A stretch of 64,000 bases of DNA from a phage, in sequence record PZ445430.1. One strand, 5' to 3'. Below, in pieces: positions 647-21,713 of this stretch (the first letter of the stretch is position 1; each line of letters starts with the position of its first letter). The translations under genes were made by a program, and so were the position numbers. The notes under the pieces are model-generated. The model did not search any database and was not told the DNA's origin. It was given only the letters and a program-made list of their open reading frames with translations.

Positions 647-809
647 ATTCTCCCTCCTTAATAAGGAACTCTTTCCATTCTGCTGTATCCTCATAGATAA
701 CGCAGAAATCATCACTCTTCCATGAGAAGTCATCAGTAGCAAATTCGAAACGGTAGCACCAACTACCATCTGGCCATACTAAAAGATCACACATGCTTTT
801 CTGGGACAT
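627..809 (-). CDS. hypothetical protein
   Basis: Start overlaps upstream stop (coupled); internal Met of track ORF 627..950. Confidence 0.4.
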   Translation of the reverse strand: MSQKSMCDLLVWPDGSWCYRFEFATDDFSWKSDDFCVIYEDTAEWKEFLIKEGEYGEEDF

Positions 810-1638
810 AAATATTTCCCTCCATAAAAGCTTCAACTTGATCAATAAAGTGTTTATTACCAAAAACTTCGGCAGCTCCAGCACGCCATACAGTAACACC
901 ACGTTTCTCATACTCAAGCTGTTCGTCATAACGAACTTGTGGGTTAACAACCATCATCTTAGTTCCACGACATACAGCAGGAAATAATTCCCAGTTGAAG
1001 TTGATAACTTGGTTACTACAACCCACCACAATAACCATGTCATTGCTAGTAAGAGTATCAAACAGGTTGATTTGACCCATGTACCACGGAGCTGTCTCAC
1101 CAAAGAACACCACGTTTGGTTTTACCCATTCGTAATCTTCAGGGGCAATCGCAGTATACCCAACATCTTCGATGATTTGATTGCGACCCTGATGATAGAT
1201 CACCTCTTTCAAGTACCCGTGAGCGTGAATGATTTCATCACGAGGGATACCAGCACGTTCCAGAAGGTCATCAACGTTAGTAGTGAAGTTCTTCACGCTA
1301 CCCGCATCATAACGCTGGAACCATTCTGCAATTCGCAGATGGGCAATGTTAGGCTCAACAGTCTGTAGTTCCTGACGACGCATGTTGTAGAACTCATGAG
1401 TCTTGAGATACAGATCGTTACCATCTTCATCAATGCCAGGGAAACGAGCGCTGAAGTAGTTAGGATCATCTTCACCACAGAAGCGACGGAAGCCAGCTTC
1501 AAAGTTAGGCAAGCTACATACTTCCTCTAGATCGTACTCATCCCACAAAGATTTTCCACTAGCAGTATCAGTACGGAAAGCACGAACACCACTATCTACA
1601 CTCAAACCTGCACCACTAACAACAATTAGTCTACGCAT
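787..1638 (-). CDS. Sir2-family NAD-dependent deacylase-like protein
   Basis: Sirtuin motifs in translation: GAGLSVDSGVRAFR, TTNVDDLLERAG, HAHG. Confidence 0.6.
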   Translation of the reverse strand: MRRLIVVSGAGLSVDSGVRAFRTDTASGKSLWDEYDLEEVCSLPNFEAGFRRFCGEDDPNYFSARFPGIDEDGNDLYLKTHEFYNMRRQELQTVEPNIAHLRIAEWFQRYDAGSVKNFTTNVDDLLERAGIPRDEIIHAHGYLKEVIYHQGRNQIIEDVGYTAIAPEDYEWVKPNVVFFGETAPWYMGQINLFDTLTSNDMVIVVGCSNQVINFNWELFPAVCRGTKMMVVNPQVRYDEQLEYEKRGVTVWRAGAAEVFGNKHFIDQVEAFMEGNIYVPEKHV

Positions 1639-1831
1639 TATACGATTCCTTGCTTGAATCCTTCGATGATATTTTGGAGCAGAATTGCTTCTTCTGGGCG
1701 AACCTTCTCTTGCTTAATAAGCATATCCAAACCAGCAATACAGGTAGCTACTCCAGCATTATACCCAGCATTCCACTGCTCCATAAGCATATTTTCTAAA
1801 TTACTTTTTAGATTCTGATTCAAGAAGTCCA
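1638..1831 (-). CDS. hypothetical protein
   Basis: Internal Met with GGAGG RBS within track ORF 1638..1916. Confidence 0.4.
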
Positions 1832-2004
1832 TAAAGTTTTTCCTCCAATTCCATAATACGATTTTCGTAAGAAGCACGCAGCTTCTCGATGGACAAAGCA
1901 CGAACTGTAACTTCATCTGAATTGATCGCTAGCTGAGCTAGATCTTCTGTTTCCATACGTCCGTTGTAAATTAAGCGATATTTAAGATGTTTTACGTTTT
2001 TCAT
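1801..2004 (-). CDS. hypothetical protein
   Basis: ORF with AAGGAA RBS. Confidence 0.4.
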   Translation of the reverse strand: MKNVKHLKYRLIYNGRMETEDLAQLAINSDEVTVRALSIEKLRASYENRIMELEEKLYGLLESESKK

Positions 2005-2013
2005 TCTTGTTCC

Positions 2014-2295
2014 TTAGTTCTGTACTGTAAATTCATTCTTATCACAGTGAGCATAATAATACCCATACATACGATAAATTTTCACAGCCTTAGTAGACCC
2101 CTTCGATTCTTCATAATCAATCCAGAGCCACTTGTCTTTACCTACATAATGTACCCGAAACTTCTTAACTTTCTTATCATTCCATGTTGCAACAACACGA
2201 CGATAATCAAATCCACCCAACCAATCTAGAGCCTTACGTTCTTCACTAGGCTCTCCAAGATAGGAAACATCTACTTTCGGAAGCAATTCGCTCAT
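2014..2295 (-). CDS. hypothetical protein
   Basis: ORF with GAGGAG RBS. Confidence 0.5.
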   Translation of the reverse strand: MSELLPKVDVSYLGEPSEERKALDWLGGFDYRRVVATWNDKKVKKFRVHYVGKDKWLWIDYEESKGSTKAVKIYRMYGYYYAHCDKNEFTVQN

Positions 2296-2393
2296 AGCTT
2301 TCTCCTCTCAAATTTATAAATCAATTATACATAAGTTTTAGCTCGAAAGCAAATAAAATAAAAGCCAGGTCGACTAGCAACCTGGCTGATTCA

Positions 2394-4268
2394 TTATTTA
2401 GCGCGAATGTCCTGATGTTTCACTCGACCCATAACCTCATGTTGTTTACCTGGGTTAAATGGACGAGCACCTGGATTTCCGAGATATCCACAAACTCGAC
2501 GAGTTACCTCAAGAGTCTCAGGATCATGGTTGCCACAAATTGGGCATTTGAAACCATCCTCAGAAGCTATAGTTTCACCCAAGAACCCACATTCCCCACA
2601 AGAGTCTACTGGAGTATTAATACCAAAGTAATGAACTTTACTTGCGGCATAGTTAATAACCCATTCCAGTGCATCTGGGAATCGTTTCATATCCGGCAAT
2701 TCCACATAGGAAATGCATCCACCAGAAGCAATTGGAGTAAAGTTAGACTCATAATCGAACTTCACGTTTGGAGCAACCTTACGTTCTACATCAAGGTGAT
2801 GGGAATTAGTGTAATATCCTTTAGCCAGAATATCTTCATGCTCTGGAAAATACTCACGGTCTAGGCGACAGAAGCGATCACATAGAGATTCAGATGGTGT
2901 AGCATATAGACTATACCCTAATTGAGTCTCTTCCTTCTTCTGATCAGCACGATCACGCATGTATTGTAGCACACGTTGAACGAACTTGACACAAGACTCA
3001 GACATTGTATCTACATCTTTACCAAACATGAACTGCAACATTTCGTGGCAGCCTATATATCCTAGAGATACAGAAGCACGCTTGTAGAAATGATCAAACA
3101 CATACTCATCTGGCCCCAGACGTAATCCAAAGGCTCCTGACATATAGAGGATGGGCGCAGCTTTAGCTTGGATGTATTTTAAGCGATCAACCCTCCACTC
3201 CAATGCTTTTAACGCGGTATCCACACGCAGCTCAAGTAGATCGAAGAATAGATCAATATTTCCTTCCGCTTCGATAGCGATTCGAGGAAGGTTTACGGAA
3301 ACAACGCCTAAGTTGTTACGACCAGAAGTTTCACCATCTTCCGCAGCAGCCAGGAATGAACGACAGCCCATAGAGACTTTGTAGTCTCCCGTAACTTCTA
3401 CAACCTTATCATAACTGATGTAGTCAGGATACATACGTTCAGCAGTACATTTCATAGCTAACTTCTTGATATCATAGTTAACATCACCAGGTTTCATGTT
3501 TACGCCATCACGCAAAACAAATACCAGTTTAGGGAAGATAGCTGTACGTTTATTGATACCCAAACCATCCATACGCACTTCTAGGATTGCTTTCTGTACA
3601 AGACGTGCTTCCCAAGAAGTTCCTAGACCAAACCCAAAGGTAATAAACGGACTTTGACCATTAGAGTTGAACATCGTATTGATTTCATACTCCAGGCCCT
3701 GACAGGCATCGTAAACTTCTTTCTCAGTCATTTCCGTAGCCATTACAGATGCTTTAGCTTCATCCTTAGTCCAACGCTTTGCAAACGCATGATTCTTATC
3801 ATAAGACTTACGAACATAAGGAGCCAATACTTCATCTAATCGGTCTACAGAAGTACCCCCATATTGATGTGAACTAACCTGAGTGATAATCTGAGCTGTG
3901 ATAGCAGCCGCAGTAGTAATAGAGTTTGGTGTACTGATTTCAGCATTACCAACCTTCATACCATTCTTCAACATATCTTCCAAAGCAACCAGGCAACAGT
4001 TAGTCATACCTAACGCAGCGTAATCAGCATCATGGAAGTGAATATCACCAATCATGTGAGCATTTCGAATCTGGATTGGCATTTCTTCCAGAATCAGATA
4101 TTTACTCAATTCCCCTGCAAGCATATCCCTTTGTGTAGGGAAACGTTCTGAGGGCTTATTGGCATTATTAAACAGCAGCTCTTCATCTGCTGAACCTTCG
4201 ATAATTTCTTTGCAGTTTCGAATCAAGGACTGCATTCCTTTATACTTTAGTTCTTCATTGTGATTCAT
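2394..4268 (-). CDS. nrdD: anaerobic ribonucleoside-triphosphate reductase (class III)
   Basis: 624 aa; C-terminal glycyl-radical motif RVCGYLG and Cys-rich zinc site. Confidence 0.9.
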   Translation of the reverse strand: MNHNEELKYKGMQSLIRNCKEIIEGSADEELLFNNANKPSERFPTQRDMLAGELSKYLILEEMPIQIRNAHMIGDIHFHDADYAALGMTNCCLVALEDMLKNGMKVGNAEISTPNSITTAAAITAQIITQVSSHQYGGTSVDRLDEVLAPYVRKSYDKNHAFAKRWTKDEAKASVMATEMTEKEVYDACQGLEYEINTMFNSNGQSPFITFGFGLGTSWEARLVQKAILEVRMDGLGINKRTAIFPKLVFVLRDGVNMKPGDVNYDIKKLAMKCTAERMYPDYISYDKVVEVTGDYKVSMGCRSFLAAAEDGETSGRNNLGVVSVNLPRIAIEAEGNIDLFFDLLELRVDTALKALEWRVDRLKYIQAKAAPILYMSGAFGLRLGPDEYVFDHFYKRASVSLGYIGCHEMLQFMFGKDVDTMSESCVKFVQRVLQYMRDRADQKKEETQLGYSLYATPSESLCDRFCRLDREYFPEHEDILAKGYYTNSHHLDVERKVAPNVKFDYESNFTPIASGGCISYVELPDMKRFPDALEWVINYAASKVHYFGINTPVDSCGECGFLGETIASEDGFKCPICGNHDPETLEVTRRVCGYLGNPGARPFNPGKQHEVMGRVKHQDIRAK

Positions 4269-4518
4269 TATACCCTCCTTCTCTAACTAAGACTACTATT
4301 ATAACTCATTCGAAGGCGGATGTCAACAATATTTTACTATAAAGTTCTGTAACATGATCTGAGTCAAAAAATTTTATTTGCCAACCTCTACTAAAAATAG
4401 TATAATCACGCACCCGTGCACGCGATATAAAATGATTATCTAGTACCATACATCTCCCAATAAAAGCAAGCAAATTTTTTATTTAAATGCAATATCATAG
4501 GCTTATTTAAAATTGTAG

Positions 4519-4547
4519 TTGCTTTCTCCCGTATATATTGGTATAAT
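4519..4547 (+). promoter_or_regulatory. sigma70-type early promoter (TTGCTT-17-TATAAT)
   Basis: -35 at 4519-4524, -10 at 4542-4547, A-rich upstream. Confidence 0.6.
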
Positions 4548-4620
4548 ATATTTGTAAGTTGATAAACAAGATCTTTTTGTTGATCCTCTGTTAGCGAAGT
4601 ACACTATAGGAGTGTTATTT

Positions 4621-5373
4621 ATGGGAAAAGCACGTCAAAAAAGAGAGAACCGCAATGGTTCAAGAAAGCGTGGCAACAAGTACGAGAGTAACGTAATTCA
4701 AGCAGATTTCTCTGGTGATTACGCCAATCCAGTTGCTAAACCCCTAGTTGGTAAAAACCGTGAGCAAAAATCATATATCAATATGATCAAGAACAACACA
4801 GTGACTGTGGGTATTGGTGAACCAGGTACTGGTAAAACCTTTATTCCATCCGTTCTTGCAGCTCAGGAACTCGTAGACATTCACTCAGATATTGAGCAAG
4901 TGATCCTCGTGCGTCCGAACGAACCTCTAGGTAAATCTCTTGGTATGCTCCCAGGTGATCTGGCAGAAAAGCTAGAGCCTTGGTTGGAACCAATAGCCGA
5001 TGGCATGAAATGGGCAATCGGTGATCACGCCTACAAAGGATATGTCGAACGTCAGAAAATTAAATTCCTGGCTATCGAACATGCCCGTGGCCGAACTTTC
5101 AACAACTCCTATGTAATTGTCGATGAAGCTCAGAATATCTCCGTTGAAGCAATGATCTGTCTCCTGACTCGTGTAGGACAAGATTGTCGTTTAATTATCT
5201 GTGGGGATATAGCGCAGAAAGACATCAAGGGTGATTCAGGTCTAGCACTTCTTATGGAAGTCTATGAGAAGTATGAAAACTCTCCTTTCTCTATGATCGA
5301 ACTGATCGACAACGTTCGCTCACCAGAGTCTAAAGCATTCTACGATATCTTTAAGGATATGGGGAAGGTGTAA
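4621..5373 (+). CDS. phoH: PhoH-like ATPase
   Basis: P-loop GEPGTGKTF; ATG 4621 sits 6 nt after AGGAG. Confidence 0.85.
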   Translation: MGKARQKRENRNGSRKRGNKYESNVIQADFSGDYANPVAKPLVGKNREQKSYINMIKNNTVTVGIGEPGTGKTFIPSVLAAQELVDIHSDIEQVILVRPNEPLGKSLGMLPGDLAEKLEPWLEPIADGMKWAIGDHAYKGYVERQKIKFLAIEHARGRTFNNSYVIVDEAQNISVEAMICLLTRVGQDCRLIICGDIAQKDIKGDSGLALLMEVYEKYENSPFSMIELIDNVRSPESKAFYDIFKDMGKV

Positions 5374-5374
5374 T

Positions 5375-5617
5375 ATGGGAAACGTCGTACATCTGCACCG
5401 CAAAACTAAGATCCACCGTACTTCATTGAGTGCTGCTAATATGATTACACGTAAGGAAGGGGAAGAAAGTCCTAAGACTACCCTAGCGTGGAAAATTGTA
5501 GCCTCTAATCCAAATCGGCCATTCAACTATAATGAACTGAGTACTTCTATAGACATTCTTATGGCTAAGGAAATACGACAGAAACTAACTGATATGACCG
5601 ATAAACTTAAATGGTAA
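5375..5617 (+). CDS. hypothetical protein
   Basis: ORF coupled to phoH stop; AAGGTG RBS. Confidence 0.4.
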   Translation: MGNVVHLHRKTKIHRTSLSAANMITRKEGEESPKTTLAWKIVASNPNRPFNYNELSTSIDILMAKEIRQKLTDMTDKLKW

Positions 5618-5624
5618 GACAGAC

Positions 5625-5660
5625 GAGCCTGGGTATGAAAATATCCGGGCTCTTTTTATC
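5625..5660 (+). terminator. rho-independent terminator
   Basis: Hairpin gagcctgg..ccgggctc followed by TTTTTAT. Confidence 0.6.
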
Positions 5661-5673
5661 TGTAAAATTGTAC

Positions 5674-5702
5674 TTGCAAAATGACCCAAAACAAAGTAGA
5701 AT
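5674..5702 (+). promoter_or_regulatory. sigma70-type promoter (TTGCAA-17-TAGAAT)
   Basis: Upstream of nrdA. Confidence 0.45.
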
Positions 5703-5740
5703 ATCTTCTAAATCCTGATAACTACAAAAAGGAAAGCCAA

Positions 5741-8071
5741 ATGAGCCATCGTATCGAAAAAGTAATTAAACGTGACGGTACTGTTCAGGACTTTGCTCCT
5801 GAAAAACTCAATGATTGGGCTGCATGGGCATGTAAAGATACTGACGTAAGTTGGTCTGCCGTAGTTATGGCTGCCCTGAAAAATCTACCCAAAGGTGTTG
5901 TAGACTCCGATACACTCCAAGATGTGTTAATTAAAGCCGCTGAAGGTCTTATCAAAGACAACCCAGCATATGATACTGTAGCAAAGGAATTACGTCTTGC
6001 GCAGATGCGTAAACGCCTATATGATTCCTTTGAACCTCCTTCTCTGCGTTTCTTCCACGATCATATGGTTCGTATTGGCGCCTGGGAAGACATGAGTGCA
6101 TGGATTAGCGATGATCATTTTGATGCTCTGAATCAAGTTATTGATCATGATCGCGATCGTTTATTCACCAGTGGTGGACTGAAACAGTTCTTCGACAAGT
6201 ATTCCCGTCGTAATATTGCAACTGGTGAAATTTATGAAACCCCGCAGTTTGCCTACATGGGTATGGCAATGGCGATGTTATCTCAACCTAACTGGACAAT
6301 CCTAGATGCAATCGACCTCTACAATGCAATGTCGCTCCACAAAATCAACGTTCCTACGCCGCCACTGGTTGGCCTGCGCTCTAGTGACCGTGGATTTGCT
6401 AGTTGCTGTCTCGTGGATTCCACTGACACGCTGGATTCAATCGACACAGCCGAGCACATCGTCTTCAAAATGGTCGCAGCCAGAGCGGGAATCGGGTATC
6501 ATCTTGAAAGCCGATCAATTGCTGATCCGGTGCGAAATGGGGCATTCCCGCATTCCGGAAAACTGCCATATTATCGACACATTGACCGATCAGTAAAAGC
6601 TAACACTCAGCAAACCCGTGGTGGTTCTGCTACTGTGTCTTACCCATACTTCGATCCTGAAATCATTCAATTGATGCAAGTTAAGCAGCAACGTGCTACA
6701 GACGAGAATAAAATCGATAAGATGGATTACTCTCTGAGCTTTAACAACCTCCTGCTAAAACGTTACCTGAAAAACGAAGATATTACGCTAATGTCCTACT
6801 TCTACGCACCAGAAGTTCATGAAGCGTTTTATGGCGAAGATGAGGCTAAGTTTGAAGAAATCTACGTGGCAGCGGAGAAACGTGTGGCATCTCTTACAAA
6901 GATCGACCACGAAGGAAAAACAATTCCAGCAGCTCCTAGAATCTCTGCAAAAGAAATCCTAGATACTTGGTTACGTATCCGTATGGAAACAGGGCGTATG
7001 TATGCTCATCACATTGGTGAATCTAACCGTCATGGTAACTTCCTTGACCCGATTCGTATGACCAACCTTTGTGTTGAAATTACTCAGCCAACCCGTCCAT
7101 TCCATCACATTACGGAGCTGTATAAGACCCAAGATCAGTTAGACGATATGCGTCCAGAAGATATTGGTGAAGTATCTCTGTGTAACTTAGGTGGTGTTGT
7201 ACTAGGTCGTATGGAATCTCTGGCTGAATGGGAGAAAACTTGCTACATTCTTCTGAAATTCGTTGATACAATCATCGAGATTCAGGATTACCCATTCCCA
7301 ACTATGGAGTACACGGCTAAGAAACGTCGTAACGTTGGTATTGGTCTGATGAACGCAGCAGGTGCAATGGCAGCAGAAGGTTTGGCTTACGAAGGTGTTG
7401 AAGCCCGTAACTGGATTCACCGTGAAGCTGAAAAGCTGTCCTACTTCCTACATAAAGCCTCTGTACGTCTGGCTAAAGAACAAGGTGCATGTGACTGGTT
7501 TAATCGTACTAAACCATCCAAAGGAACTCTGGTAATCGACACGTACAAGAAAACTGTTGATGAACTGGTAACTGTAGGTCTAGAAATGGATTGGGAATCT
7601 CTGCGTGCAGATATTCTGAAATATGGTATGCGCAACTCTGTTCTGACTGCTCAGATGCCGGGTGAAAGTTCCTCTGTACTGCTAGGTGTTACTAACTCTA
7701 TCGAGCCGCCTCGTAAGATTGTATCTATCAAGGGTAGTGCAGTTAATAAAGTAATTGCAATTGCTCCAGGTGCAACCGATTGGGATACATTAATGAGTTA
7801 TAAACTAGCTTATGATGTAGATCGTATCGAGTGGATAAAATGGGTAGCAACCATGCAGAAATTCTTCAGTCAGTCTATCAGTACGAATATGTACTATGAC
7901 TACACCAAGTTTGAGAATGAAATCATTCCTGGTCCAGTAGTAGTTCGTGATTTCATGACTGCTGTTAAGTACGGCTGGAAAACTTGGTACTACGCTAACT
8001 TCAACACTGAAAATGGTGGTGGAGCTGGTGAAGAAGCAGCAGGTTGTGCATCAGGTGGTTGTAACCTGTAA
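5741..8071 (+). CDS. nrdA: ribonucleotide reductase class Ia alpha subunit
   Basis: ATP-cone N-terminus (VIKRDGTVQDF); AAGGAAAG RBS before ATG 5741. Confidence 0.9.
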   Translation: MSHRIEKVIKRDGTVQDFAPEKLNDWAAWACKDTDVSWSAVVMAALKNLPKGVVDSDTLQDVLIKAAEGLIKDNPAYDTVAKELRLAQMRKRLYDSFEPPSLRFFHDHMVRIGAWEDMSAWISDDHFDALNQVIDHDRDRLFTSGGLKQFFDKYSRRNIATGEIYETPQFAYMGMAMAMLSQPNWTILDAIDLYNAMSLHKINVPTPPLVGLRSSDRGFASCCLVDSTDTLDSIDTAEHIVFKMVAARAGIGYHLESRSIADPVRNGAFPHSGKLPYYRHIDRSVKANTQQTRGGSATVSYPYFDPEIIQLMQVKQQRATDENKIDKMDYSLSFNNLLLKRYLKNEDITLMSYFYAPEVHEAFYGEDEAKFEEIYVAAEKRVASLTKIDHEGKTIPAAPRISAKEILDTWLRIRMETGRMYAHHIGESNRHGNFLDPIRMTNLCVEITQPTRPFHHITELYKTQDQLDDMRPEDIGEVSLCNLGGVVLGRMESLAEWEKTCYILLKFVDTIIEIQDYPFPTMEYTAKKRRNVGIGLMNAAGAMAAEGLAYEGVEARNWIHREAEKLSYFLHKASVRLAKEQGACDWFNRTKPSKGTLVIDTYKKTVDELVTVGLEMDWESLRADILKYGMRNSVLTAQMPGESSSVLLGVTNSIEPPRKIVSIKGSAVNKVIAIAPGATDWDTLMSYKLAYDVDRIEWIKWVATMQKFFSQSISTNMYYDYTKFENEIIPGPVVVRDFMTAVKYGWKTWYYANFNTENGGGAGEEAAGCASGGCNL

Positions 8072-8080
8072 TAAAAACAA

Positions 8081-8106
8081 GGAGATCTTCGGGTCTCCTT
8101 TTTCTT
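8081..8106 (+). terminator. rho-independent terminator
   Basis: Hairpin ggagatc-ttcg-ggtctcc plus T-run. Confidence 0.6.
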
Positions 8107-8117
8107 TGAAATTTTAC

Positions 8118-8146
8118 TTGCTAATCGCTACCAGATTTGCTATAAT
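8118..8146 (+). promoter_or_regulatory. early promoter (TTGCTA-17-TATAAT)
   Basis: -35 at 8118-8123, -10 at 8141-8146. Confidence 0.6.
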
Positions 8147-8187
8147 ATTCCTGAAATAGTGAGAAATAGTGAGAAAGAGGAAAATCA

Positions 8188-9333
8188 ATGACTACTTTAC
8201 TAAACCTGAATTGGGATCATACTAACGCTGACCTTTTCCTGGGCGATTCTCTTGGTATCGCAGATTACGTTCGTGTAGCACATCCTGAACTTGAGCGTCT
8301 AGCACTTTTGCAACGTTCTCAATTTTGGACTGAAACTGAAATCAGTCTGGAAGCCGATAAGAAACAATGGCCAAACCTCCCGCGTGATATTCAGGAAATT
8401 ACTCTCCTGAACTTAGCATGGCAGACCCAAACAGATTCTTTCATTAGCCGTGCTCCTGAAGCAGCTATTATGCCGCTTGTAAGCCGTCCTGAATTGGAGG
8501 GTATGCTCAAGCAGTGGAGCTACTTCGAAGATCTGCACAGCCGTGCATATAGTAACATTATTCGTAACGTTCTGACTGATCCAGCAGAATTTATTGATTC
8601 TGTAACTAAAAACCAAGAAGCATTTGCACGTATCGCAGATTCTGTTGAACTGTTTGATGAATTGTATCTGTTAGGCCAGTATTTCCTTGCAGTACGTGAT
8701 CATCGTGGTGATAATACTTATCCAGAAACTGAGTTCCCTGAAGTTAAACGTGAAACTCAGGCTAAACTGTTAGACGCTTACTTTGCAATCTATGGTCTGG
8801 AAGCAATGCAGTTCTACGCATCCTTTGCATGTACCTTTGCTCTAGCAGAGAACGATATTCTGCAAGGTATTGCTAAGAACCTGCAATTAATCGCTAAAGA
8901 TGAAGCTCTACATACTCAAATGTCTAAAGCTATCATCCAGATTATGTTCCAGCAGTTTGATAAAGATCTGGTAGATGAAGCATTAGCTAAAGCACCAGCA
9001 CAACTCCTAAAAACTCTGAAAACTGAGATTGAATGGGGCCACTTTATCTTTAAAGGCCGCAGTCTGATTGGTTTGAACGCAGAATTGCTTGAAGAATACC
9101 TTTACTTTGTAGGACGTAACGCATTTATGCACATTGGTGTAGAATGGCCAAGCCACTTACCTGTAATTACTAAGAACCCTATTCCGTGGATTATGAACTG
9201 GTTGGATACTACATCTTTACAACCTGCTCCACAAGAGATTCAGATTGGTGCAGCGTACCGTGTAGGTCAAGTAACTGAAACCTCTGCTGATACTCTGAAA
9301 GATCTTGGCAACGAATTTGAGGATATGTTCTAA
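8188..9333 (+). CDS. nrdB: ribonucleotide reductase class Ia beta subunit
   Basis: 381 aa directly after nrdA; di-iron/tyrosyl-radical family assigned by size, position and overall resemblance. Confidence 0.85.
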   Translation: MTTLLNLNWDHTNADLFLGDSLGIADYVRVAHPELERLALLQRSQFWTETEISLEADKKQWPNLPRDIQEITLLNLAWQTQTDSFISRAPEAAIMPLVSRPELEGMLKQWSYFEDLHSRAYSNIIRNVLTDPAEFIDSVTKNQEAFARIADSVELFDELYLLGQYFLAVRDHRGDNTYPETEFPEVKRETQAKLLDAYFAIYGLEAMQFYASFACTFALAENDILQGIAKNLQLIAKDEALHTQMSKAIIQIMFQQFDKDLVDEALAKAPAQLLKTLKTEIEWGHFIFKGRSLIGLNAELLEEYLYFVGRNAFMHIGVEWPSHLPVITKNPIPWIMNWLDTTSLQPAPQEIQIGAAYRVGQVTETSADTLKDLGNEFEDMF

Positions 9334-14011: not shown

Positions 14012-14713
14012 ATGAAATTCAAGCCCTTTGGTATGCTGGACATTGAATCTCTAGGTACTCCAGGAAATTGCGGTACTACTCATATTGCAATGCCTTCTTT
14101 CGCTTTTGTAGCGATGCACGGAATTGATAAAGATCCTGATCTGGTATTCGTTACTCTAGACGTTCAAGATCAGCTTAATGCGGGTGCTAAGGTAACTGCC
14201 TCTACTATTGCATTCTGGATGGATCAAGCTAAAAACAGTCCATCTGCGCTCCATATTATGGAGGCTCTAAATGGTCGTAATCCTAAGCTGATTGCCTTCC
14301 GTGATGGTAAGCATCACTGCACTAATGACGTAGGCTCTAATTATGCTGCCTTCTCTATGGCTCAGAACATTATGGAATTGTCTCTAGGAGATAATGCTCT
14401 GTATTACGGCAATGGCCCAGAGTTTGATATGACAATCTACTCTGCAAATACGTTCCATGCCGGAACCCATGAAGAAATAGTTCCGTGGAAATTCTGGAAC
14501 TTAGGTAACGTTCGATCTTTCCGTAATCAGTGGATGCAAGCTGGTTATAGCTATAAAGATCTAGAAGCCGAAGGTGCTAGCTGGGCAAAAGCTAAAATGG
14601 AAAAGATGGACACCATTCGTTATGGAATCTATCCTGTGAAGCATGATCCAGCATTCGATGCTTTAGTTGAAAGTTATTGTGTAGCCGTCATGATCGAAAA
14701 AATCAAAATTTGA
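14012..14713 (+). CDS. DEDDh-type 3'-5' exonuclease-like protein
   Basis: Candidate Exo motifs MLDIESLGT, GNGPEFD, HDPAFDA. Confidence 0.55.
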   Translation: MKFKPFGMLDIESLGTPGNCGTTHIAMPSFAFVAMHGIDKDPDLVFVTLDVQDQLNAGAKVTASTIAFWMDQAKNSPSALHIMEALNGRNPKLIAFRDGKHHCTNDVGSNYAAFSMAQNIMELSLGDNALYYGNGPEFDMTIYSANTFHAGTHEEIVPWKFWNLGNVRSFRNQWMQAGYSYKDLEAEGASWAKAKMEKMDTIRYGIYPVKHDPAFDALVESYCVAVMIEKIKI

Positions 14714-14714
14714 T

Positions 14715-14743
14715 TTGCTTTCAGCTCCAAAATTCTGTATAAT
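14715..14743 (+). promoter_or_regulatory. early promoter (TTGCTT-17-TATAAT)
   Basis: -35 at 14715-14720, -10 at 14738-14743. Confidence 0.6.
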
Positions 14744-14783
14744 ATATTCATAAATTTGAGAGAACAACAAAAGGAAAATAATT

Positions 14784-14966
14784 ATGCCAGTATCTAAAAA
14801 CGTCCGTAAAAATGGTAAAGTAGCAAAACGTAACCTGGGTCTGCGTCGTATGGCTGAGTGTCAGTCCGGCATCCAGAAAATCTTTAATGTACTGAATCGC
14901 GCCAACCCGAATATTGATAACAGTTCTGATACTGTTCTGCGCACTCTGCTGGCAATCGGTCTGTAA
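14784..14966 (+). CDS. hypothetical basic protein
   Basis: ORF with AAGGAAA RBS. Confidence 0.45.
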   Translation: MPVSKNVRKNGKVAKRNLGLRRMAECQSGIQKIFNVLNRANPNIDNSSDTVLRTLLAIGL

Positions 14967-15020
14967 TAGGCCGTTTTTAAAACAAATTCAAATCTCAAAC
15001 TTCATATAAGGAAGCAAATA

Positions 15021-15659
15021 ATGACTACTCGTATCTCTAAAACTCGTGCTCTGGCAACTATCAAGTCTCTGGAAGCTAAAATCCGTAAAGCTACTGAACA
15101 ACAGCTTTTGATCGCTGTTGGTGAAGGTAAGGACAAGAACCAAGTTGTCGTTGGCGCTGCAATCGAAGTAGATGCTCTGTCTACTCGTATTAAGACTGAT
15201 TTCCAGTCTCTGCTGGATATGATGTCCCAGCGTGATCAGCTGAAAGCTGCGCTGATCAAGAGCAATGCTGAAACTGTTGTAGAGATCGGTTCTCGCTCTA
15301 TGACTGTTGCGGAAGCAATCGAAGCTAAGCGTTCTATGGAACTCAAAGCTCAGTTGCTGGCTAACATGCGTAAGCAGTTCCATGCTGCTACTGTTAAGTT
15401 TAACACTCAGAAGGCTCAGTTTGACGCCAAGTATGAGCGTCTGCAGGATACCATGGCTACCCGCGACAAGAAGACTTCCGAGGATGAAGTTAAGATGCAG
15501 CTTAACCTGCTGGAACTCAAGAACACTCCGTTCCTGATCGATCCGCTGGAGCTAGAAAAGCTGATCAAGCAACACGACGAAGAATACCAGGACTTTGCAA
15601 CTAACGTTGACTTTGTTCTGTCTGAGTCCAACGCCTCTACTTTCATCGAAGTAGAGTAA
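15021..15659 (+). CDS. hypothetical protein
   Basis: 212 aa; AAGGAAG RBS; codon usage like 12935..13450. Confidence 0.55.
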   Translation: MTTRISKTRALATIKSLEAKIRKATEQQLLIAVGEGKDKNQVVVGAAIEVDALSTRIKTDFQSLLDMMSQRDQLKAALIKSNAETVVEIGSRSMTVAEAIEAKRSMELKAQLLANMRKQFHAATVKFNTQKAQFDAKYERLQDTMATRDKKTSEDEVKMQLNLLELKNTPFLIDPLELEKLIKQHDEEYQDFATNVDFVLSESNASTFIEVE

Positions 15660-16039
15660 TAATTTAAAAGACTAGTAAATCGGTAGACGAAAGCCCAAGC
15701 ATCTTACCTCGCAGCAGCGGTTGAAATACGAGGTTAAATAAGACCGCTGACCATACTATAAAGTATAATCTATTGGAGATTATGTTTATTACACCAGCCT
15801 CTTAAGCTGAACTGTAAAAACGGTCGTTGGTAGTACCAACACAACTTCAAAGATCAACGCTCAAGTATGAAAGCTGAAAAGTTAAAAGAACTCAAACTTC
15901 TAACCTTCTAAAGCTAAAAGATGCAAAGTATTCGTTGATGATTCAAACCCTAGATCAAAGGTACATGGCTCATAAGATATGGCCTGTGGCGCCTCTAGGC
16001 TGTTTATCGGTTCACTAGTCTCTCAATTTAAAAATGTAT

Positions 16040-16068
16040 TTGCTAATTAGTTTAGTTTTCTATATAAT
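16040..16068 (+). promoter_or_regulatory. early promoter (TTGCTA-17-TATAAT)
   Basis: -35 at 16040-16045, -10 at 16063-16068. Confidence 0.6.
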
Positions 16069-16098
16069 ATATTTTTAAATTGATGAGACGAGGCTATT

Positions 16099-16416
16099 AT
16101 GATTTTTCATATTCTGATTGATGATGTTCGTGACCTGCATGGGATGGATATTATCATTCGAACCCCCGAAGCCGCTATTGAGTTTCTGAATACAACCGAT
16201 ACCACCGGACATTTCGTTTATATGGATAATGATCTGGCTGTAGATGGTATGGAAGGTTATCAAATTCTTCGTTTACTCCTAGAATTTGGACAGAGACCCA
16301 AGAAAGTGGTACTAGTAACCTCGAACCCTGTAGCTAAGCAGAACATGCGTAATGATTTGCTTGACGAAGGGTATCAAGAAAGCCCTAATCGTATTGAGTA
16401 CGATTGGCCGGAGTAA
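16099..16416 (+). CDS. hypothetical protein
   Basis: ORF with GAGG RBS. Confidence 0.5.
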   Translation: MIFHILIDDVRDLHGMDIIIRTPEAAIEFLNTTDTTGHFVYMDNDLAVDGMEGYQILRLLLEFGQRPKKVVLVTSNPVAKQNMRNDLLDEGYQESPNRIEYDWPE

Positions 16417-16421
16417 ATAAA

Positions 16422-16871
16422 ATGAAGGCAGCTTTGCTTCTAATAGCTGCCCTAACCTATAGCTTCAATAGTCATGCTACCTACGACTCAAAGCAGATTG
16501 ATTGCATTGCAAAAAATATCTACTTCGAAGCACGAGGTGAGGGCACAAAGGGAATGATTGCAGTTGCACAGGTTACTAAAAACCGTGTAAACTCCGGTAA
16601 ATTCCCTGATTCTTACTGTAAAGTAGTATATCAGTCTAACCAATTCAGCTGGACAGCTAAAAAACCTAGGGTTGATAAAACAGATGAGACTTGGCAAGTT
16701 GCTAAGAACTTAGCTAGAGTGATATACTACGTTGATTTACCACAAGATCCAACACAGGGGGCGTTATACTTCCATAGTGGTAAAGATAAACCGTACTGGA
16801 CAAAGAAGTTTAAGAAAACAACGAAGATTCAAGGCCATACGTTCTACAAGCCTGTGGTTAAGAAAACTTAA
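16422..16871 (+). CDS. secreted cell-wall hydrolase (SleB/Hydrolase_2-like)
   Basis: Signal peptide MKAALLLIAALTYSFNSHA; motif NIYFEARGEG..AVAQVTKNR. Confidence 0.55.
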   Translation: MKAALLLIAALTYSFNSHATYDSKQIDCIAKNIYFEARGEGTKGMIAVAQVTKNRVNSGKFPDSYCKVVYQSNQFSWTAKKPRVDKTDETWQVAKNLARVIYYVDLPQDPTQGALYFHSGKDKPYWTKKFKKTTKIQGHTFYKPVVKKT

Positions 16872-16878
16872 AAATTCG

Positions 16879-16907
16879 ATTGCTTAAAGACTTAAATTTC
16901 TGTATAA
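16879..16907 (+). promoter_or_regulatory. early promoter (TTGCTT-17-TATAAT)
   Basis: -35 at 16879-16884, -10 at 16902-16907. Confidence 0.6.
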
Positions 16908-16939
16908 TACTTTCATAAATTAATGAGAGGAAGCGAAAT

Positions 16940-17110
16940 ATGAAATCAGTTGTAATTATTGGTGTTAATACCCGTGGTATCCGTACTACGAAAACAGTTA
17001 AAACTACTAACGTTGCTGAAATTACTACAAACCCTAAGAAGTTTGATTTCGCCAAAGTCTCGGCAGTTATGACAGAACAATCTTTTAACCAAGTACTGGG
17101 AATTAAATAA
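16940..17110 (+). CDS. small hypothetical protein (56 aa)
   Basis: Short ORF with GAGAGGAAG RBS, coupled to next gene. Confidence 0.35.
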   Translation: MKSVVIIGVNTRGIRTTKTVKTTNVAEITTNPKKFDFAKVSAVMTEQSFNQVLGIK

Positions 17111-17553
17111 TGGAAGAAAATATTCTAAATGTTTTGCGTAGGGCTTTGCAGGAATCTAAGATTGATGGCTCTGATAAAGAGGTAGCTAAAAGCTACCAGA
17201 CCATAATCGAAGATCTTCAGCGTGTTGATAAAGACTTCATTACTTCTGAACAGTTTGTGTCTTATCTCAAAGCTCAGCTGAAAAGCATTAATCAGACGAA
17301 AGCTAAACTTCATGGTCAAGACCTTGATAATTATAGCTTGCAGTCTGCTCAGTATGAATATATACTGAACAAATGGCTACAACAGTATCTGCCGCCTCAG
17401 CTTTCTGATTCTGAGATTCGCAAATACTTTGCAGAATTAGTTACGTTGAACCCTGGGATTACGAAGAGTATGCTGATGAAAGCGATTAAGGAAGAATTCC
17501 CTGGTCGTTATGACGGTGGCATCGCTGCTCAGGTTGCTGGCGAATTTAACTAA
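17110..17553 (+). CDS. hypothetical protein
   Basis: ORF. Confidence 0.5.
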   Translation: MEENILNVLRRALQESKIDGSDKEVAKSYQTIIEDLQRVDKDFITSEQFVSYLKAQLKSINQTKAKLHGQDLDNYSLQSAQYEYILNKWLQQYLPPQLSDSEIRKYFAELVTLNPGITKSMLMKAIKEEFPGRYDGGIAAQVAGEFN

Positions 17554-17561
17554 AAATTGAT

Positions 17562-17590
17562 TTGCTAAACGCTTCAAAATTCTGTATAAT
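17562..17590 (+). promoter_or_regulatory. early promoter (TTGCTA-17-TATAAT) reading into an ORF-free region
   Basis: -35 at 17562-17567, -10 at 17585-17590. Confidence 0.6.
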
Positions 17591-17845
17591 AGATTCATAA
17601 ATTAGAGAACAGCGAGCCGATTACGCTGAGTGAGTTTAGTGATTCCTACTAGGATAGCTACTCCACTGAATAGAGTCGGTGAGTTGGAGACTAGTAAGTA
17701 CTCTGAGAGAGGCTACGAGCTAACGCTTATTGCTATTGATAGGGAACTGAAAATCTGCGGAAAACTCGGGAGCTGTCCCGAAATCTCGTAAACTCTTCTC
17801 TAGTTTATGTTAGTGGGGTGTCGAACTGACTTATGTGATAACACT

Positions 17846-17917
17846 GCCGTCCTAGTATAAACGGTAATATCAAACCGTAACTGGTGGAAGATGCAGGTTC
17901 GAATCCTGCGGTCGGAA
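17846..17917 (+). ncRNA. tRNA-like element
   Basis: Canonical T-arm GCAGGTTCGAATCCTGC; acceptor and anticodon stems do not pair; no CCA. Confidence 0.3.
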
Positions 17918-18449
17918 AGAATCAGATAACTCGGGCTTATACCGGATAAGCATTCGCTGCTGTAGTACATACTATGACGGTTCAGGAGGTACGCCTCCTG
18001 ATCAGTATTAGGTTAGAATCGAAACAGCTAAACCACGAGGAAACCTGACGGCCTCAACCAAACTCGGAACTCGGGATCACTGCCTAGTGTGTACCCCGTT
18101 TAACCTGAGACTAGGCATCCAGCTTCGCATCGAAAATCGGAGGTGCGATTCTAACAGACCGCGTGAATATGAGAGTGGGAAACGCTGACATGAGAGATGT
18201 CACTAATGGTGCCCAATAGTACAGGTAATTCGCGATAATTCCTGTTGAGCGGCAGCAGTAGGCTGGGAGTCATGACCTAAGCCTAACCGAGTTCTTCACA
18301 TACGGAGAACATAACCACAAAGTCACCCTGACTTAAACTGGAAGATATTGTCTGACGGAAGGGCTGCAGAGCTTAATCTGAGGGGGCTGACCCTACCTAC
18401 CGTCGGGTATCTTTAAGAGCTTTTATAAGAGTTCTTAAAAATACCTAAA

Positions 18450-18524
18450 CGGGGTGTAGTCTAAGGGATAGGCAGGAGTCTTCTAAATTCCTTTATGCAG
18501 GTTCGAATCCTGTCACCTCGGCCA
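18450..18524 (+). tRNA. tRNA-Arg(TCT)
   Basis: Manual cloverleaf; anticodon loop CTTCTAA; CCA encoded. Confidence 0.7.
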
Positions 18525-18550
18525 ATTTTATTAACTGCTAGGAAAATAAA

Positions 18551-18751
18551 GTGAAAACACGATATATAGTAAAAGTAGTAGGTGAACATTCACAAGTAAA
18601 TACCACCGATGTTACAGCGCTAGCATTTGAAGTAGTCTCCGGTATAGTCATATTTCATAACGGAGATATCAAAGCTCCTGAATTTGCTGTGGATGCTAGC
18701 CTGTTTATTTCTGCAACTAAAGTAACTGTAGTAGCTAACTCTTCTAAATAA
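18551..18751 (+). CDS. hypothetical protein
   Basis: ORF with GTG start after AGGAAA RBS. Confidence 0.4.
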   Translation: MKTRYIVKVVGEHSQVNTTDVTALAFEVVSGIVIFHNGDIKAPEFAVDASLFISATKVTVVANSSK

Positions 18752-18762
18752 TAAGGAAATAT

Positions 18763-19707
18763 ATGTTTACTAAAAACACTAAAGAACTGACTTCCGATCA
18801 AAAAGTAATTCGTACTATTAAACGTTGGGGCGTTGGTGCTGTAGTTGGTCTTGGCGCTCTTATTCTGGCTCTCAATTCCTATACAGTTGTTCAGGACGGT
18901 ACGGTTAAAACTCAGACTTTCCTGGGTAAAGTTAGTCCTAATCCTGTATTGCCGGGGTTCCATATTGTCAACCCATTCGCCTCTTTTGATACTTTTAGTA
19001 CGAAAGATATTTCTATGAAACTGGATAAACTTCAGGTTCCTAGCCAGGATAAGTTTAAGTCCACTGTTGACATTACCGTTATGTTGCAGTTTGATGGTGC
19101 TAAAGCTCCTATGAACCGTGTTAACGCAGGTACTCAGGATCAAGCTCTGAACAAGTACGTTGAAGAGAAGATGCTATCTACTATTCGTGAGTTTGGTAAG
19201 TCTGTACCAAAAGCACAAGATCTGTTCGACGCTAAGATTCAGGCTCAACTGCAAACTGCTATTCAGCAAGAAGTAGAAGAGTACGCGCGTCCTTATGGTT
19301 ACACGGTTAAGCAAGTATTCCTTCAGGATATTACTCTGCCACCTGTAATCATGGAACAGGTACAAAACACAAAAGTTCGTGAAGAACAAGTTAACGCCGC
19401 TAAAGCTGAATTGGCTCGTGTTGAACAAGAAGCACAGCAGAAAGTTAAGCAAGCTGAAGCTGATCGTTCTGCTCGTGAAAACATGGCAGTAGCTAACGAA
19501 CGTGACGCAGATGCTAAACTGTACGCAGCTAAGAAAGAAGCTGAAGCTAACGCCGCGCTGCAACGTACCATTACTCCTGAAATGATTCGTTGGAAGCAGC
19601 TGGAAGTTGAAATGCTTCGTGCTGAAAAATACCAAGGTGGTGTACCGCAGACTATTGTTGGTACTGGCTACGATGGTCAAATGATCATGGATATGCGTAA
19701 CAAGTAA
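18763..19707 (+). CDS. SPFH/band-7 (HflK/C, prohibitin-like) membrane protein
   Basis: N-terminal TM helix, SPFH-like core, long Ala/Glu/Lys coiled coil. Confidence 0.7.
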   Translation: MFTKNTKELTSDQKVIRTIKRWGVGAVVGLGALILALNSYTVVQDGTVKTQTFLGKVSPNPVLPGFHIVNPFASFDTFSTKDISMKLDKLQVPSQDKFKSTVDITVMLQFDGAKAPMNRVNAGTQDQALNKYVEEKMLSTIREFGKSVPKAQDLFDAKIQAQLQTAIQQEVEEYARPYGYTVKQVFLQDITLPPVIMEQVQNTKVREEQVNAAKAELARVEQEAQQKVKQAEADRSARENMAVANERDADAKLYAAKKEAEANAALQRTITPEMIRWKQLEVEMLRAEKYQGGVPQTIVGTGYDGQMIMDMRNK

Positions 19708-19730
19708 TAGTTACACGTAATCTTCGAACC

Positions 19731-19768
19731 AAGCCCGCGTTTCCTCCGAGAGCGCGGGCTTTTCTGTA
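19731..19768 (+). terminator. rho-independent terminator
   Basis: Hairpin aagcccgcg..cgcgggctt plus T-run. Confidence 0.6.
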
Positions 19769-19919
19769 TTTAAGGCAAAAGAAAAGCCCATAAGTTATTC
19801 AACTAAGGTCTTTAGTATTTAATTCTTTAATTCTTTAGAATCATATACTATTATTGTAGCAACAACGTGCTACCACTAAATGCCTTGAGATTTTTCCACT
19901 AAAAAGTTTAAAAATTCGA

Positions 19920-19948
19920 TTGCTTGAACGCTAAATTCTCTGTATAAT
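19920..19948 (+). promoter_or_regulatory. early promoter (TTGCTT-17-TATAAT)
   Basis: -35 at 19920-19925, -10 at 19943-19948. Confidence 0.6.
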
Positions 19949-19978
19949 ATATTTATAAATTTGAGAGAGGAATCAAAT

Positions 19979-21034
19979 ATGATTAAGACTGGTCTAGTAA
20001 TTGGTAAGTTCGCGCCATTAACGCGTGGTCATATTAACCTAATAAACACAGCAGCAACTATGTGTGAACGAGTTATTGTTGTAGTTAGTCATGATAATCG
20101 TTGGCTGGATAAGCAGAACACACGTGATCAGGAAGTATTACAGTTAAAGAATCGACTTCGTTGGTTAGAACAAACTTACGCGGATATTGAGCACATTTCG
20201 GTAGAGTACATTATTGAAGATGATATTCCTGAATATCCGAATGGTTGGCCGGAATATGCTAGAATCCTTAATGAAAATTACGGACATTTGCCTGAGATCA
20301 CCGTTTTCTCTAGCGAACTAGACTATGATGCAGAATATAAGAAATATCTGCCGAAGTTTGGTCATTATATTGTAGATTCTGATCGGACTCGTGTTCCAAT
20401 CTCAGCTACAATGATTCGTAATGATCTTATGAAGTATTGGGAGTTTCTTCCTAGCGTAGTTCGTAAAGATTACGTGCGTAAGGTTGTAATCATTGGGACT
20501 GAAAGCTCGGGAAAGACTACTTTAACAAAATACCTTGCGAAGCTATACAACACTTCGTGGGTAGAAGAATATGGCCGAACGTATTGTGAAGTTGATCTAG
20601 TTGGTAACGAAAATCTACTTACCAGTGAAGATTACAGTAAAATTGCGTTCAGACACAAAGAGCTAGAGTTTGAGGCAGAACGTACTGCAAATAAGATCAT
20701 GTTTGTAGACACAAATGCTTTTATTACTGAGTTCTACCACAGACTTTATGAACATCGTAAGAATCCTGTGGTTACAGCAATTGCAAAAGAAGAACATTAC
20801 GATTTAGTAATTGTTCTAGCGCCTACTGTTAAGTGGGTAGATGATGGTTTACGTATTAACTCCGATCGTTCAATTACTTCTGAACTGTTCGAGCAGATGA
20901 AGAAAGAATTTCCAAATCAGTTCCCTGAAGGGCGTACTGTTTACATCGACTCCCCGGACTACAAAGTTCGTATGGACGAAGCAGTAAACGCAGTAGACTG
21001 GCTGATTCATCACTTTAACGTTGGAGAGTTTTAA
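19979..21034 (+). CDS. nadR: NadR-like bifunctional NMN adenylyltransferase / ribosylnicotinamide kinase
   Basis: Nucleotidyltransferase motif GKFAPLTRGH at N-terminus; P-loop GTESSGKTT in C-terminal half. Confidence 0.7.
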   Translation: MIKTGLVIGKFAPLTRGHINLINTAATMCERVIVVVSHDNRWLDKQNTRDQEVLQLKNRLRWLEQTYADIEHISVEYIIEDDIPEYPNGWPEYARILNENYGHLPEITVFSSELDYDAEYKKYLPKFGHYIVDSDRTRVPISATMIRNDLMKYWEFLPSVVRKDYVRKVVIIGTESSGKTTLTKYLAKLYNTSWVEEYGRTYCEVDLVGNENLLTSEDYSKIAFRHKELEFEAERTANKIMFVDTNAFITEFYHRLYEHRKNPVVTAIAKEEHYDLVIVLAPTVKWVDDGLRINSDRSITSELFEQMKKEFPNQFPEGRTVYIDSPDYKVRMDEAVNAVDWLIHHFNVGEF

Positions 21035-21035
21035 T

Positions 21036-21713
21036 ATGACTAACTATCTTGTAAATGACTTTAAAAACTGGAAACCTTTGGAATATCTGTGGCTGTTTAT
21101 AGCAGTCGCCTTTATTAGTTTAGCAAACTATAATGGTACAGCTCTAGATTGGGCTACTGCAATAACCAATGTGGTTTGTGTTATTCTGGTTGCAAAAGGA
21201 CGTGTTTCCAACTATATTTGGGGCTTAGTGGGTGTTCTTACATATGGTATTACAGCTTTAAACGCAGATCTTTATGGTAACGCTGCACTAAACCTGCTAT
21301 ACTACGTTCCTATGCAGTTTTATGGAATGTACTTATGGCATAAAAATAAGCCAAGTAATCTGCCAGATGTTCCAACTAAGTTTCTGACTAAAGCCCAAGC
21401 TCTGCTGACTCTAGGGATTCTAGCAGTAGCCACGTTAGGGTATGGTAGTTTCTTAGCTACTACAGCTGATCCATTCCCAATGCTCGATGCATTTACTGCG
21501 GTTGGTAGTGTGATCGCTATGTGGCTTATGGTTAAGCAGTATGCCGAGCAGTGGCTGATCTGGATTGCTATTAACATTGGTACTGTGTACATTTGGCTTG
21601 TAACTGCTCAATCTACAGGTGCATCTTATGCAATCCTAGCAATGTGGCTAGTATTCTTAGGTAACTCTATTATGGGAGCCTATAAAGGATACTTTGTACG
21701 CGTTAACAAATAA
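21036..21713 (+). CDS. pnuC: PnuC-like nicotinamide riboside transporter
   Basis: About 226 aa polytopic membrane protein coupled to nadR-like gene. Confidence 0.65.
   Translation: MTNYLVNDFKNWKPLEYLWLFIAVAFISLANYNGTALDWATAITNVVCVILVAKGRVSNYIWGLVGVLTYGITALNADLYGNAALNLLYYVPMQFYGMYLWHKNKPSNLPDVPTKFLTKAQALLTLGILAVATLGYGSFLATTADPFPMLDAFTAVGSVIAMWLMVKQYAEQWLIWIAINIGTVYIWLVTAQSTGASYAILAMWLVFLGNSIMGAYKGYFVRVNK

Follow-up and report, generated by a model that had tools for sequence, protein, structure and literature searches.

A NARP3 cassette and a separate Sir2-like operon: two NAD+-using modules, probably unrelated, in the T5-like phage SuperGirl

Three genes whose products use or make nicotinamide adenine dinucleotide (NAD+), or import a precursor of it, are found in the 64,000-nucleotide stretch of phage DNA studied here (sequence record PZ445430.1; the whole stretch is called the window below). 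One of them, on the minus strand at 787-1638, encodes a Sir2-like protein of the sirtuin family. The other two, on the plus strand, encode a NadR-like enzyme (19979-21034) and a PnuC-like transporter (21036-21713). The locus raises the question whether these genes work together, as a preliminary description had proposed by grouping them as a NAD-centred set, or whether they merely lie in the same genome. All three open reading frames (ORFs) were present at these positions, with Pfam family matches far above chance. The proposal was partly supported: it was right for the NadR-like/PnuC-like pair, which is the published and thus already known NARP3 pathway, and unsupported for the inclusion of the Sir2-like gene. 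The three genes share a theme but do not make up one functional unit. We put at about 75% the probability that the window holds two unrelated NAD+-using modules, the NARP3 cassette and a separate operon containing the Sir2-like gene and a HAD-family phosphatase gene, and that the two were inherited independently.

The first 22 kb of the window are 100% identical to positions 47304-69303 of Escherichia phage SuperGirl (NC_105116.1). This phage is Bas29 of the BASEL collection, a T5-like phage belonging to the genus Epseptimavirus of the Demerecviridae, and with many other T5-like phages of Salmonella and Escherichia the same 22 kb share 97-98% identity. At its other end the window repeats the beginning of the record: its final 482 bases (63519-64000) equal the opening 482 bases in GenBank, where the small terminase gene starts, so the window wraps across the arbitrary start of the record. 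In GenBank the three genes are labelled 'Sir2-like protein' (bas29_0053), 'putative nicotinamide-nucleotide adenylyltransferase' (bas29_0084) and 'nicotinamide mononucleotide transporter' (bas29_0085).

The NadR-like protein (bas29_0084, 351 amino acids) matched the Pfam families CTP_transf_like and AAA_28 (1e-31) and passed the NCBIfam NadR equivalog model NF005988 with 256 bits against a cut-off of 201. The alignment spans positions 65-407 of the 411 positions of this model. Since it begins only at position 65, the N-terminal helix-turn-helix (HTH) DNA-binding region of NadR is missing from the phage protein, which, as judged from the alignment, is an enzyme only and no regulator: a predicted bifunctional ribosylnicotinamide kinase (RNK) and nicotinamide mononucleotide (NMN) adenylyltransferase (NMNAT). 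The PnuC-like protein (bas29_0085, 225 amino acids), a predicted nicotinamide riboside transporter, matched the Pfam family NMN_transporter (PF04973, E=2.2e-43), the model TIGR01528 (121.2 bits, cut-off 42.45) and the solved PnuC structure 4QTN (E=1.4e-32).

Both proteins are nearly identical to the two components of NARP3, Bas30_86 and Bas30_87 of the sister phage TrudiRoth, which were described in August 2026 in Sci Adv (PMC13464706; structures PDB 9X6F and 9X6H). The NadR-like protein shares 349 of 351 residues (99.4%) with Bas30_86 (9X6F, E=1e-240), and the PnuC-like protein 223 of 225 (99.1%) with Bas30_87. The substitutions are V109I and R259S in NadR and A25V and F116V in PnuC, none of them at a residue probed in that work. 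All 16 NadR residues that were mutated or named as ligand contacts in PMC13464706 (among them K10, F11, S37, E80, P84, G89, F110, S112, D115, V139, I141, E230 and D275) and all three PnuC residues probed there (N45, Q94 and N180) are kept in the SuperGirl proteins. The two phages also share the order of the two genes, their genomic site, the genus and the BASEL collection, and TrudiRoth (Bas30) is 97.4% identical to the window over this region; it differs by an extra ORF, bas30_0082, upstream of the tRNA-Arg gene.

The likeness to the cellular proteins is more distant, with identities that, judged by eye from the alignments, are low. With bacterial NadR (H. influenzae, 1LW7; E. coli NadR, NF005988) the phage enzyme shares the NMNAT and RNK domains, the Walker A motif GTESSGKTT and the ISAT motif. 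It differs in having no HTH repressor region, in lying behind a phage early promoter, and in the first residue of the (H/T)xGH motif, which is T in the phage protein (PLTRGH) and H in the H. influenzae and E. coli proteins. The phage transporter belongs to the same PnuC fold family as the N. mucosa protein 4QTN.

The published work describes the NARP3 enzyme as truncated and reports crystal structures and the reaction sequence from nicotinamide riboside (NR) over NMN to NAD+; the transporter is trimeric and binds NR. Co-expression of NARP3 restored the NAD+/NADH lost to the Sir2-HerA defence system and raised the plating of T7 and lambda 10^3- to 10^4-fold, and DSR1 was likewise counteracted (PMC13464706). 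That the NadR-PnuC operon of BASEL phages is probably an additional route of NAD+ reconstitution had already been hypothesised (Osterman et al. 2024). NARP3 shares with NARP1 (Adps and Namat) and NARP2 (Nampt and Nmnat) the principle of rebuilding NAD+ to defeat a NAD-depleting defence (Osterman et al. 2024). It differs from them in substrates and enzymes: it needs the external precursor NR and a transporter, and recycles neither ADP-ribose (ADPR) nor nicotinamide.

The role that the preliminary description gave to the pair, uptake of nicotinamide riboside and resynthesis of NAD+ to counter NAD-depleting immunity, has thus been demonstrated for 99%-identical orthologues, and from these we infer that the same biochemistry and defence rescue would operate in SuperGirl. 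An early promoter would drive the NadR-like enzyme and the coupled PnuC-like channel (module 1, 19920-21743). PnuC would admit NR into the cell, the RNK domain would phosphorylate it to NMN, and the NMNAT domain would adenylate NMN to NAD+, replenishing the pool destroyed by host defences of the Sir2 or TIR type. As the HTH repressor domain is missing, NARP3 should run unregulated during infection.

By its layout the pair is a self-contained two-gene early unit within a region of tRNA genes. A strong intrinsic terminator with a 12-bp stem, seven GC pairs and a T-run (19731-19761, plus strand) ends the upstream SPFH/lipoprotein gene and isolates the pair from it. A T5-type early promoter follows at 19920-19948, an exact match to TTGCTT-N17-TATAAT located 31 nucleotides upstream of the NadR start codon. 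Between this promoter and the ATG at 19979 lies ATAAATTTGAGAGAGGA, and the ATG itself is preceded by GAGAGAGGA; the leader is only about 25 nucleotides long. The TAA stop codon of NadR is separated from the PnuC ATG by a single nucleotide, and GGAGAG is present within the 3' end of NadR, which makes translational coupling of the two genes plausible. Directly 3' of the PnuC stop codon there is a hairpin (21721-21743, plus strand) with a 9-bp stem and a weak T tail, which was read by eye from the sequence, was not flagged by the terminator scan, and may be the end of the unit. The next T5-type early promoter (21761-21789, plus strand, exact match) starts the following unit. A search of window positions 1-30000 with Rfam at gathering thresholds gave tRNAs only and no riboswitch, such as one of the NAD+ or pnuC type, in front of the pair.

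The T5-type motif had 14 exact matches in the window, where 0.05 were expected by chance (starting at 2324, 4519, 11111, 12517, 14715, 16880, 19920, 21761, 22125, 24493, 27443, 40150, 42952 and 61673). It is often trailed by ATAAATTTGAGAGAGGA and a start codon. As the T5-type early promoter class, it shows where the early transcription units of the window lie. It appears to resemble the strong early promoters long known from T5, PN25 for example. A generic sigma-70 promoter scan, which gave fewer matches than with shuffled sequence and placed the NadR promoter in the wrong register, was replaced by this explicit motif search. The tRNA genes that enclose the NARP3 cassette form a dense cluster (window 17846-30000) with 26 Rfam tRNA matches, one of them just upstream of the SPFH gene.

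The placement and distribution of the pair argue against a common unit with the Sir2-like gene, which is located in another operon, on the opposite strand and 18 kb away. Phage T5 carries a Sir2-like gene but neither NadR nor PnuC; the best tblastn matches in the whole T5 genome had E values of 0.8 (NadR) and 0.09 (PnuC). When 59 viral IMG/VR loci with this sirtuin were searched for neighbours, neither NadR nor PnuC was found within 10 kb of the sirtuin gene in any of them. The sirtuin gene co-varies instead with RNA-repair genes (see below), and its product is a predicted NAD+ consumer and not a salvage enzyme. Catalytic residues, whose loss the preliminary description had named as a sign against itself, are kept in all three proteins.

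T5 has opposite-strand genes (ORF072, ORF073 and 'kapc') at the site that corresponds to the position of NARP3. Thirty T5-like IMG/VR contigs (L073-L102) were recovered by means of the neighbouring SPFH gene. NadR-PnuC followed this gene in only two of the 30 contigs, whereas the T5-type cassette was present in 19, in 18 of them without NARP3. One of the two NARP3 contigs contained both cassettes and several contigs contained neither. By this distribution NARP3 is a sporadic accessory cassette at a variable site. In T5-like phages, the region just 3' of the SPFH/band-7 gene (window 19708-21830; in T5, L006 37201-39712) constitutes a variable hot spot.

GenBank records, grouped by the first word of the organism name, gave a similar picture in both directions. 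Among 'Escherichia' phage records Sir2 was found in 375 and NadR in 38, which leaves at least 337 with Sir2 and without NadR; among 'Vibrio' phage records NadR was found in 355 and Sir2 in 50, which leaves at least 305 with NadR and without Sir2. At an identity of at least 95% there were 196 records for NadR and 172 for Sir2. The possibility that the SuperGirl-type allele of Sir2 is co-inherited with NARP3 was rejected on finding two IMG/VR contigs that carry this allele (97-98% identity) and lack NARP3. An apparent adjacency of Sir2 and NadR, suggested by a Klebsiella phage record (H71) in which the NadR match is called 'Sir2', was also dropped. The label looks like an annotation error; the related Klebsiella phage Seu621 (H72, Mydovirus) was inspected in its place, the H71 record itself not, and no Sir2 annotation was found in the examined stretch of Seu621. 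In this phage (L003 5995-9380) five small ORFs lie between the genes for a distant NadR (35% identity) and a PnuC-like transporter, and the pairing of NARP3-like genes may be looser in the Vequintavirinae.

A connection between the two modules could still exist at the level of metabolism, if NARP3 mainly fed the NAD+ consumers of the phage and did not serve counter-defence. SuperGirl does encode two such consumers. One is the Sir2-like enzyme; the other is a NAD+-dependent DNA ligase split into subunits A and B (bas29_0037/38, located beyond the window at NC_105116.1 37971-39924), which T5 has as dnlj1/dnlj2. Moreover, the Sir2 operon and the pair share the early-promoter class and should therefore be expressed in the same phase. 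However, T5 and most T5-like phages possess Sir2 and the NAD-dependent ligase without NARP3, which indicates that these consumers do not require it. As T5 and SuperGirl both encode the ligase, T5-like phages depend on NAD+ with or without NARP3. NARP3 by itself, with no Sir2 present, protects unrelated phages against Sir2-HerA (PMC13464706), and there is neither physical nor phyletic linkage of NARP3 and Sir2. Such a coordinated NAD economy, which takes the idea of the preliminary description to its strongest version, is therefore regarded as unlikely. What the NARP3 and Sir2 modules share is the metabolite NAD+ and the early expression class only.

The Sir2-like gene belongs to a separate early operon (module 2), which is core to T5-like phages and is transcribed from the minus strand. 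Its upstream boundary is a terminator after nrdD with a 10-bp stem and a T-run (2363-2387; L001 4387-4363). A T5-type early promoter (2324-2352, exact motif) lies between this terminator and the first ORF of the operon, at the same place as the T5 promoter T5P31. Three small ORFs follow (bas29_0054-56, at 2014-2295, 1801-2004 and 1638-1832), which match only PHROGs of unknown function, and then the gene for the Sir2-like protein (bas29_0053, 787-1638, 283 amino acids, Pfam SIR2 E=8.4e-22). Two further small ORFs without Pfam match (bas29_0051/52, 627-809 and 461-646) separate it from the gene of a HAD_SAK_2 phosphatase (bas29_0050, 1-474, 168 amino acids, the first 11 codons beyond the window edge; PF18143 E=6.8e-18). 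PF18143 is the 'HAD domain in Swiss Army Knife RNA repair proteins', and bas29_0050 has the motifs DIDGV and VLDD. Left of the window the operon ends with two tandem DUF7415 paralogues, each with two DUF7415 domains (L001 1132-1965, record 46435-47268), and is closed by a terminator (L001 1108-1088). The T5 operon, starting from T5P31, consists of ORF094-095, cobB, an Aeh1ORF302c-like gene, ORF098, an Aeh1ORF298c-like gene and a terminator. Between the two phages the HAD protein is 90% identical, the DUF7415 proteins are 64-67% identical, and the Sir2-like proteins 53%.

While its flanks are nearly the same (HAD gene 90%, a 67-residue ORF 91%), Sir2 diverges between SuperGirl-type and T5-type phages (only about 52% identity), and the SuperGirl allele is closer (60%) to the sirtuins of phi92-like and Justusliebigvirus myophages (L010-L064). 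NrdD (window 2394-4268) likewise falls into two types of allele (about 60% and 93-100%) among genomes that are otherwise alike, which suggests mosaic allele replacement at Sir2 and NrdD. TrudiRoth has a putative homing endonuclease gene between nrdA and nrdB (L002 8676-9191) which SuperGirl lacks at that place (window about 8072-8187).

What does the Sir2-like protein do? It scored 78.4 bits with Pfam SIR2 (PF02146, cut-off 24), and its closest solved relatives by sequence were E. coli CobB (1S5P, 6RXJ), followed by the Af1 and Af2 Sir2 proteins, SIRT5, SIRT3 and SIRT2. Comparison of 121 sirtuin homologues, all from phages or phage-sized contigs, revealed G9-A10-G11, S13, S16, F21-R22, N121, D123, H140-G141, F179 and E181 (G180 in 107 of the 121), G206, S208 and N232 as invariant or nearly so. 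These residues belong to the motifs of the Rossmann NAD+ pocket (GAGxS...FR, xNxD, GxS and N), and H140 is the catalytic His of the HG motif. Y84 and R87, which were invariant in the 40-41 aligned homologues, align with the Y-x-x-R pair of CobB; in class III sirtuins this pair binds the acyl carboxylate. The SuperGirl protein has no cysteine between H140 and F179, and the segment corresponding to the zinc module of CobB contains at most one cysteine in each of the 121 homologues. The CobB cysteine positions align to Y148 and a gap.

An AlphaFold2 model built from 40 homologues, with the T5 row left out, was confident (predicted local distance difference test score, pLDDT, 87.8; predicted template modelling score, pTM, 0.86). 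In a Foldseek search of the PDB the model had CobB, Af1-Sir2 and SIRT5 as top matches (E about 1e-15; TM score 0.83 normalised to CobB), and none of the 50 matches listed was a Sir2 of the defence type. By these data the protein is a NAD+-binding, probably active, zinc-less derivative of class III (CobB/SIRT5-type) sirtuins. It has the fold, the GAGxS, xNxD, HG and FGE motifs and the Y-x-x-R pair in common with CobB and SIRT5 (1S5P, 6RXJ), and differs from them by the missing zinc cysteines, an insertion of about 30 residues at about residues 47-76 and an identity of only about 25%. Its activity is most likely the cleavage of NAD+, with transfer of the ADP-ribose to a substrate.

One candidate function would be lysine deacylation of the ordinary CobB type, for example desuccinylation or deacetylation, by which host or phage proteins could be reprogrammed early in infection. 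The top matches in sequence and fold, the invariant catalytic His, Asn and Asp together with the Y84/R87 pair, and the name 'NAD-dependent deacetylase' that GenBank and PHROG give to the family all agree with such a role. Zinc-binding cysteines are, however, generally needed by sirtuin deacetylases, and they are missing in all 121 family members. The protein also failed the CobB subfamily and equivalog models by wide margins (NF001753, 92 bits against 243; NF040867, 75.7 against 320), and the gene recurs among RNA-end-processing genes in different phage lineages. Protein deacylation, which is suggested by ancestry, is therefore a possible role that we rank second.

Loss of the zinc module, as in defence Sir2 domains, and retention of the catalytic His and Asn would be compatible also with a free NADase, which would collapse host metabolism or exclude competitors while NARP3 compensates. 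This is very improbable. The single-domain protein did not match the PADLOC models of defence Sir2 at E<=0.001, its nearest folds are those of deacylases, and it differs from the defence NADases ThsA, DSR1/2, Sir2-HerA and SPARSA by having no fused sensor, regulatory or partner domain. T5-like phages that lack NARP3 carry the gene as well and would starve their own NAD-dependent ligase. Free NADase activity is thus a distant third among the candidate functions.

The function ranked first, because of gene context, is the processing of RNA ends or 2'-phosphates. From the same kind of gene neighbourhood it was predicted that most phage sirtuins form a distinct clade with a role in RNA repair resembling that of KptA/Tpt1 (Iyer, Burroughs, Anantharaman & Aravind 2022). 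The types within it are represented by Serratia phage BF, by phages V5 and Mydo, and by the T5-like phage SP15, which stands for the neighbourhood containing a HAD Swiss-army-knife phosphatase. The SuperGirl protein shares with this clade both membership and the type-3 neighbourhood of a sirtuin and a HAD Swiss-army-knife phosphatase, and orthologues with 47-60% identity occur in the rV5-type neighbourhood of ligase, cREC, kinase and MazG genes; nothing separates the SuperGirl sirtuin from the clade. Literature searches yielded no experimental work on the sirtuin of T5 or of any phage.

Among the 59 sirtuin loci the HAD gene was located within 2 kb and on the same strand in 28, and the DUF7415 pair, by the same measure, in 31, which include Klebsiella T5-like phages without a detected HAD gene. 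In 11-13 loci, which are rV5-like, genes for an Rnl1-type RNA ligase, a kinase, a metallophosphoesterase and a MazG-like protein lie within about 4 kb instead. The gene order in Vequintavirus JES2013 is RNA_lig_T4_1, cREC_REC, Sir2 and an annotated nucleotide pyrophosphohydrolase (MazG-like, without Pfam match), with an AAA_33 kinase and a calcineurin-like phosphoesterase divergent to the sirtuin neighbourhood. The neighbourhood in a 278-kb contig (L067), considered as a possible type-1 jumbo-phage RNA-repair neighbourhood, was uninformative: its Sir2 protein belongs to a different, more canonical clade and is 33% identical. In this part of the contig (9721-11198) the Sir2 protein, which matches Pfam SIR2 over its full length, has as neighbours a DUF4326 protein and a nucleoside 2-deoxyribosyltransferase-like one, a different NAD/ADP-ribose-related neighbourhood.

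From such contexts in independent phage lineages we infer that the sirtuin may process RNA ends or 2'-phosphates by Tpt1/KptA-like chemistry rather than deacylate proteins. A fuller scheme can be proposed tentatively. The zinc-less sirtuin and the HAD_SAK_2 phosphatase, perhaps with the DUF7415 pair, would constitute a NAD+-dependent system for the repair of RNA ends, in which the sirtuin fold carries out Tpt1/KptA-type chemistry on 2'-phosphates. T5-like phages would direct the system against host anticodon or tRNA nucleases, and in Epseptimaviruses NARP3 would in addition secure its supply of NAD+.

Several observations weigh against the roles assigned to the two modules. The nearest relatives of the phage sirtuin in sequence and structure are protein deacylases, and the class III Y84/R87 pair is kept. 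None of the queried RNA-repair genes was found in about 15 of the 59 sirtuin loci, and no RNA ligase was seen near the sirtuin among the genes examined in T5-like phages; gene neighbourhood is circumstantial evidence for RNA repair. As to the pair, NadR and PnuC are also encoded by the host, E. coli K-12, so any benefit from NARP3 depends on expression and regulation. The published evidence for NARP3 comes from heterologous expression, and its authors name the missing test in the native phage as a limitation (PMC13464706). An anti-defence role in SuperGirl itself is accordingly presumed by analogy.

The SuperGirl pair is one more, nearly identical instance of NARP3 and in this respect offers little that is new. 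SuperGirl, however, is a BASEL phage growing on E. coli K-12 and suits a test of NARP3 in the native phage. The sirtuin is widespread, with about 980 GenBank phage records encoding it; the zinc site is lost, the NAD+ site is perfectly conserved, and the gene travels with RNA-repair genes. Its function would be either a new sirtuin chemistry or that of a phage deacylase acting on host proteins, and Tpt1/KptA-type chemistry, if true, would be a new activity for sirtuins.

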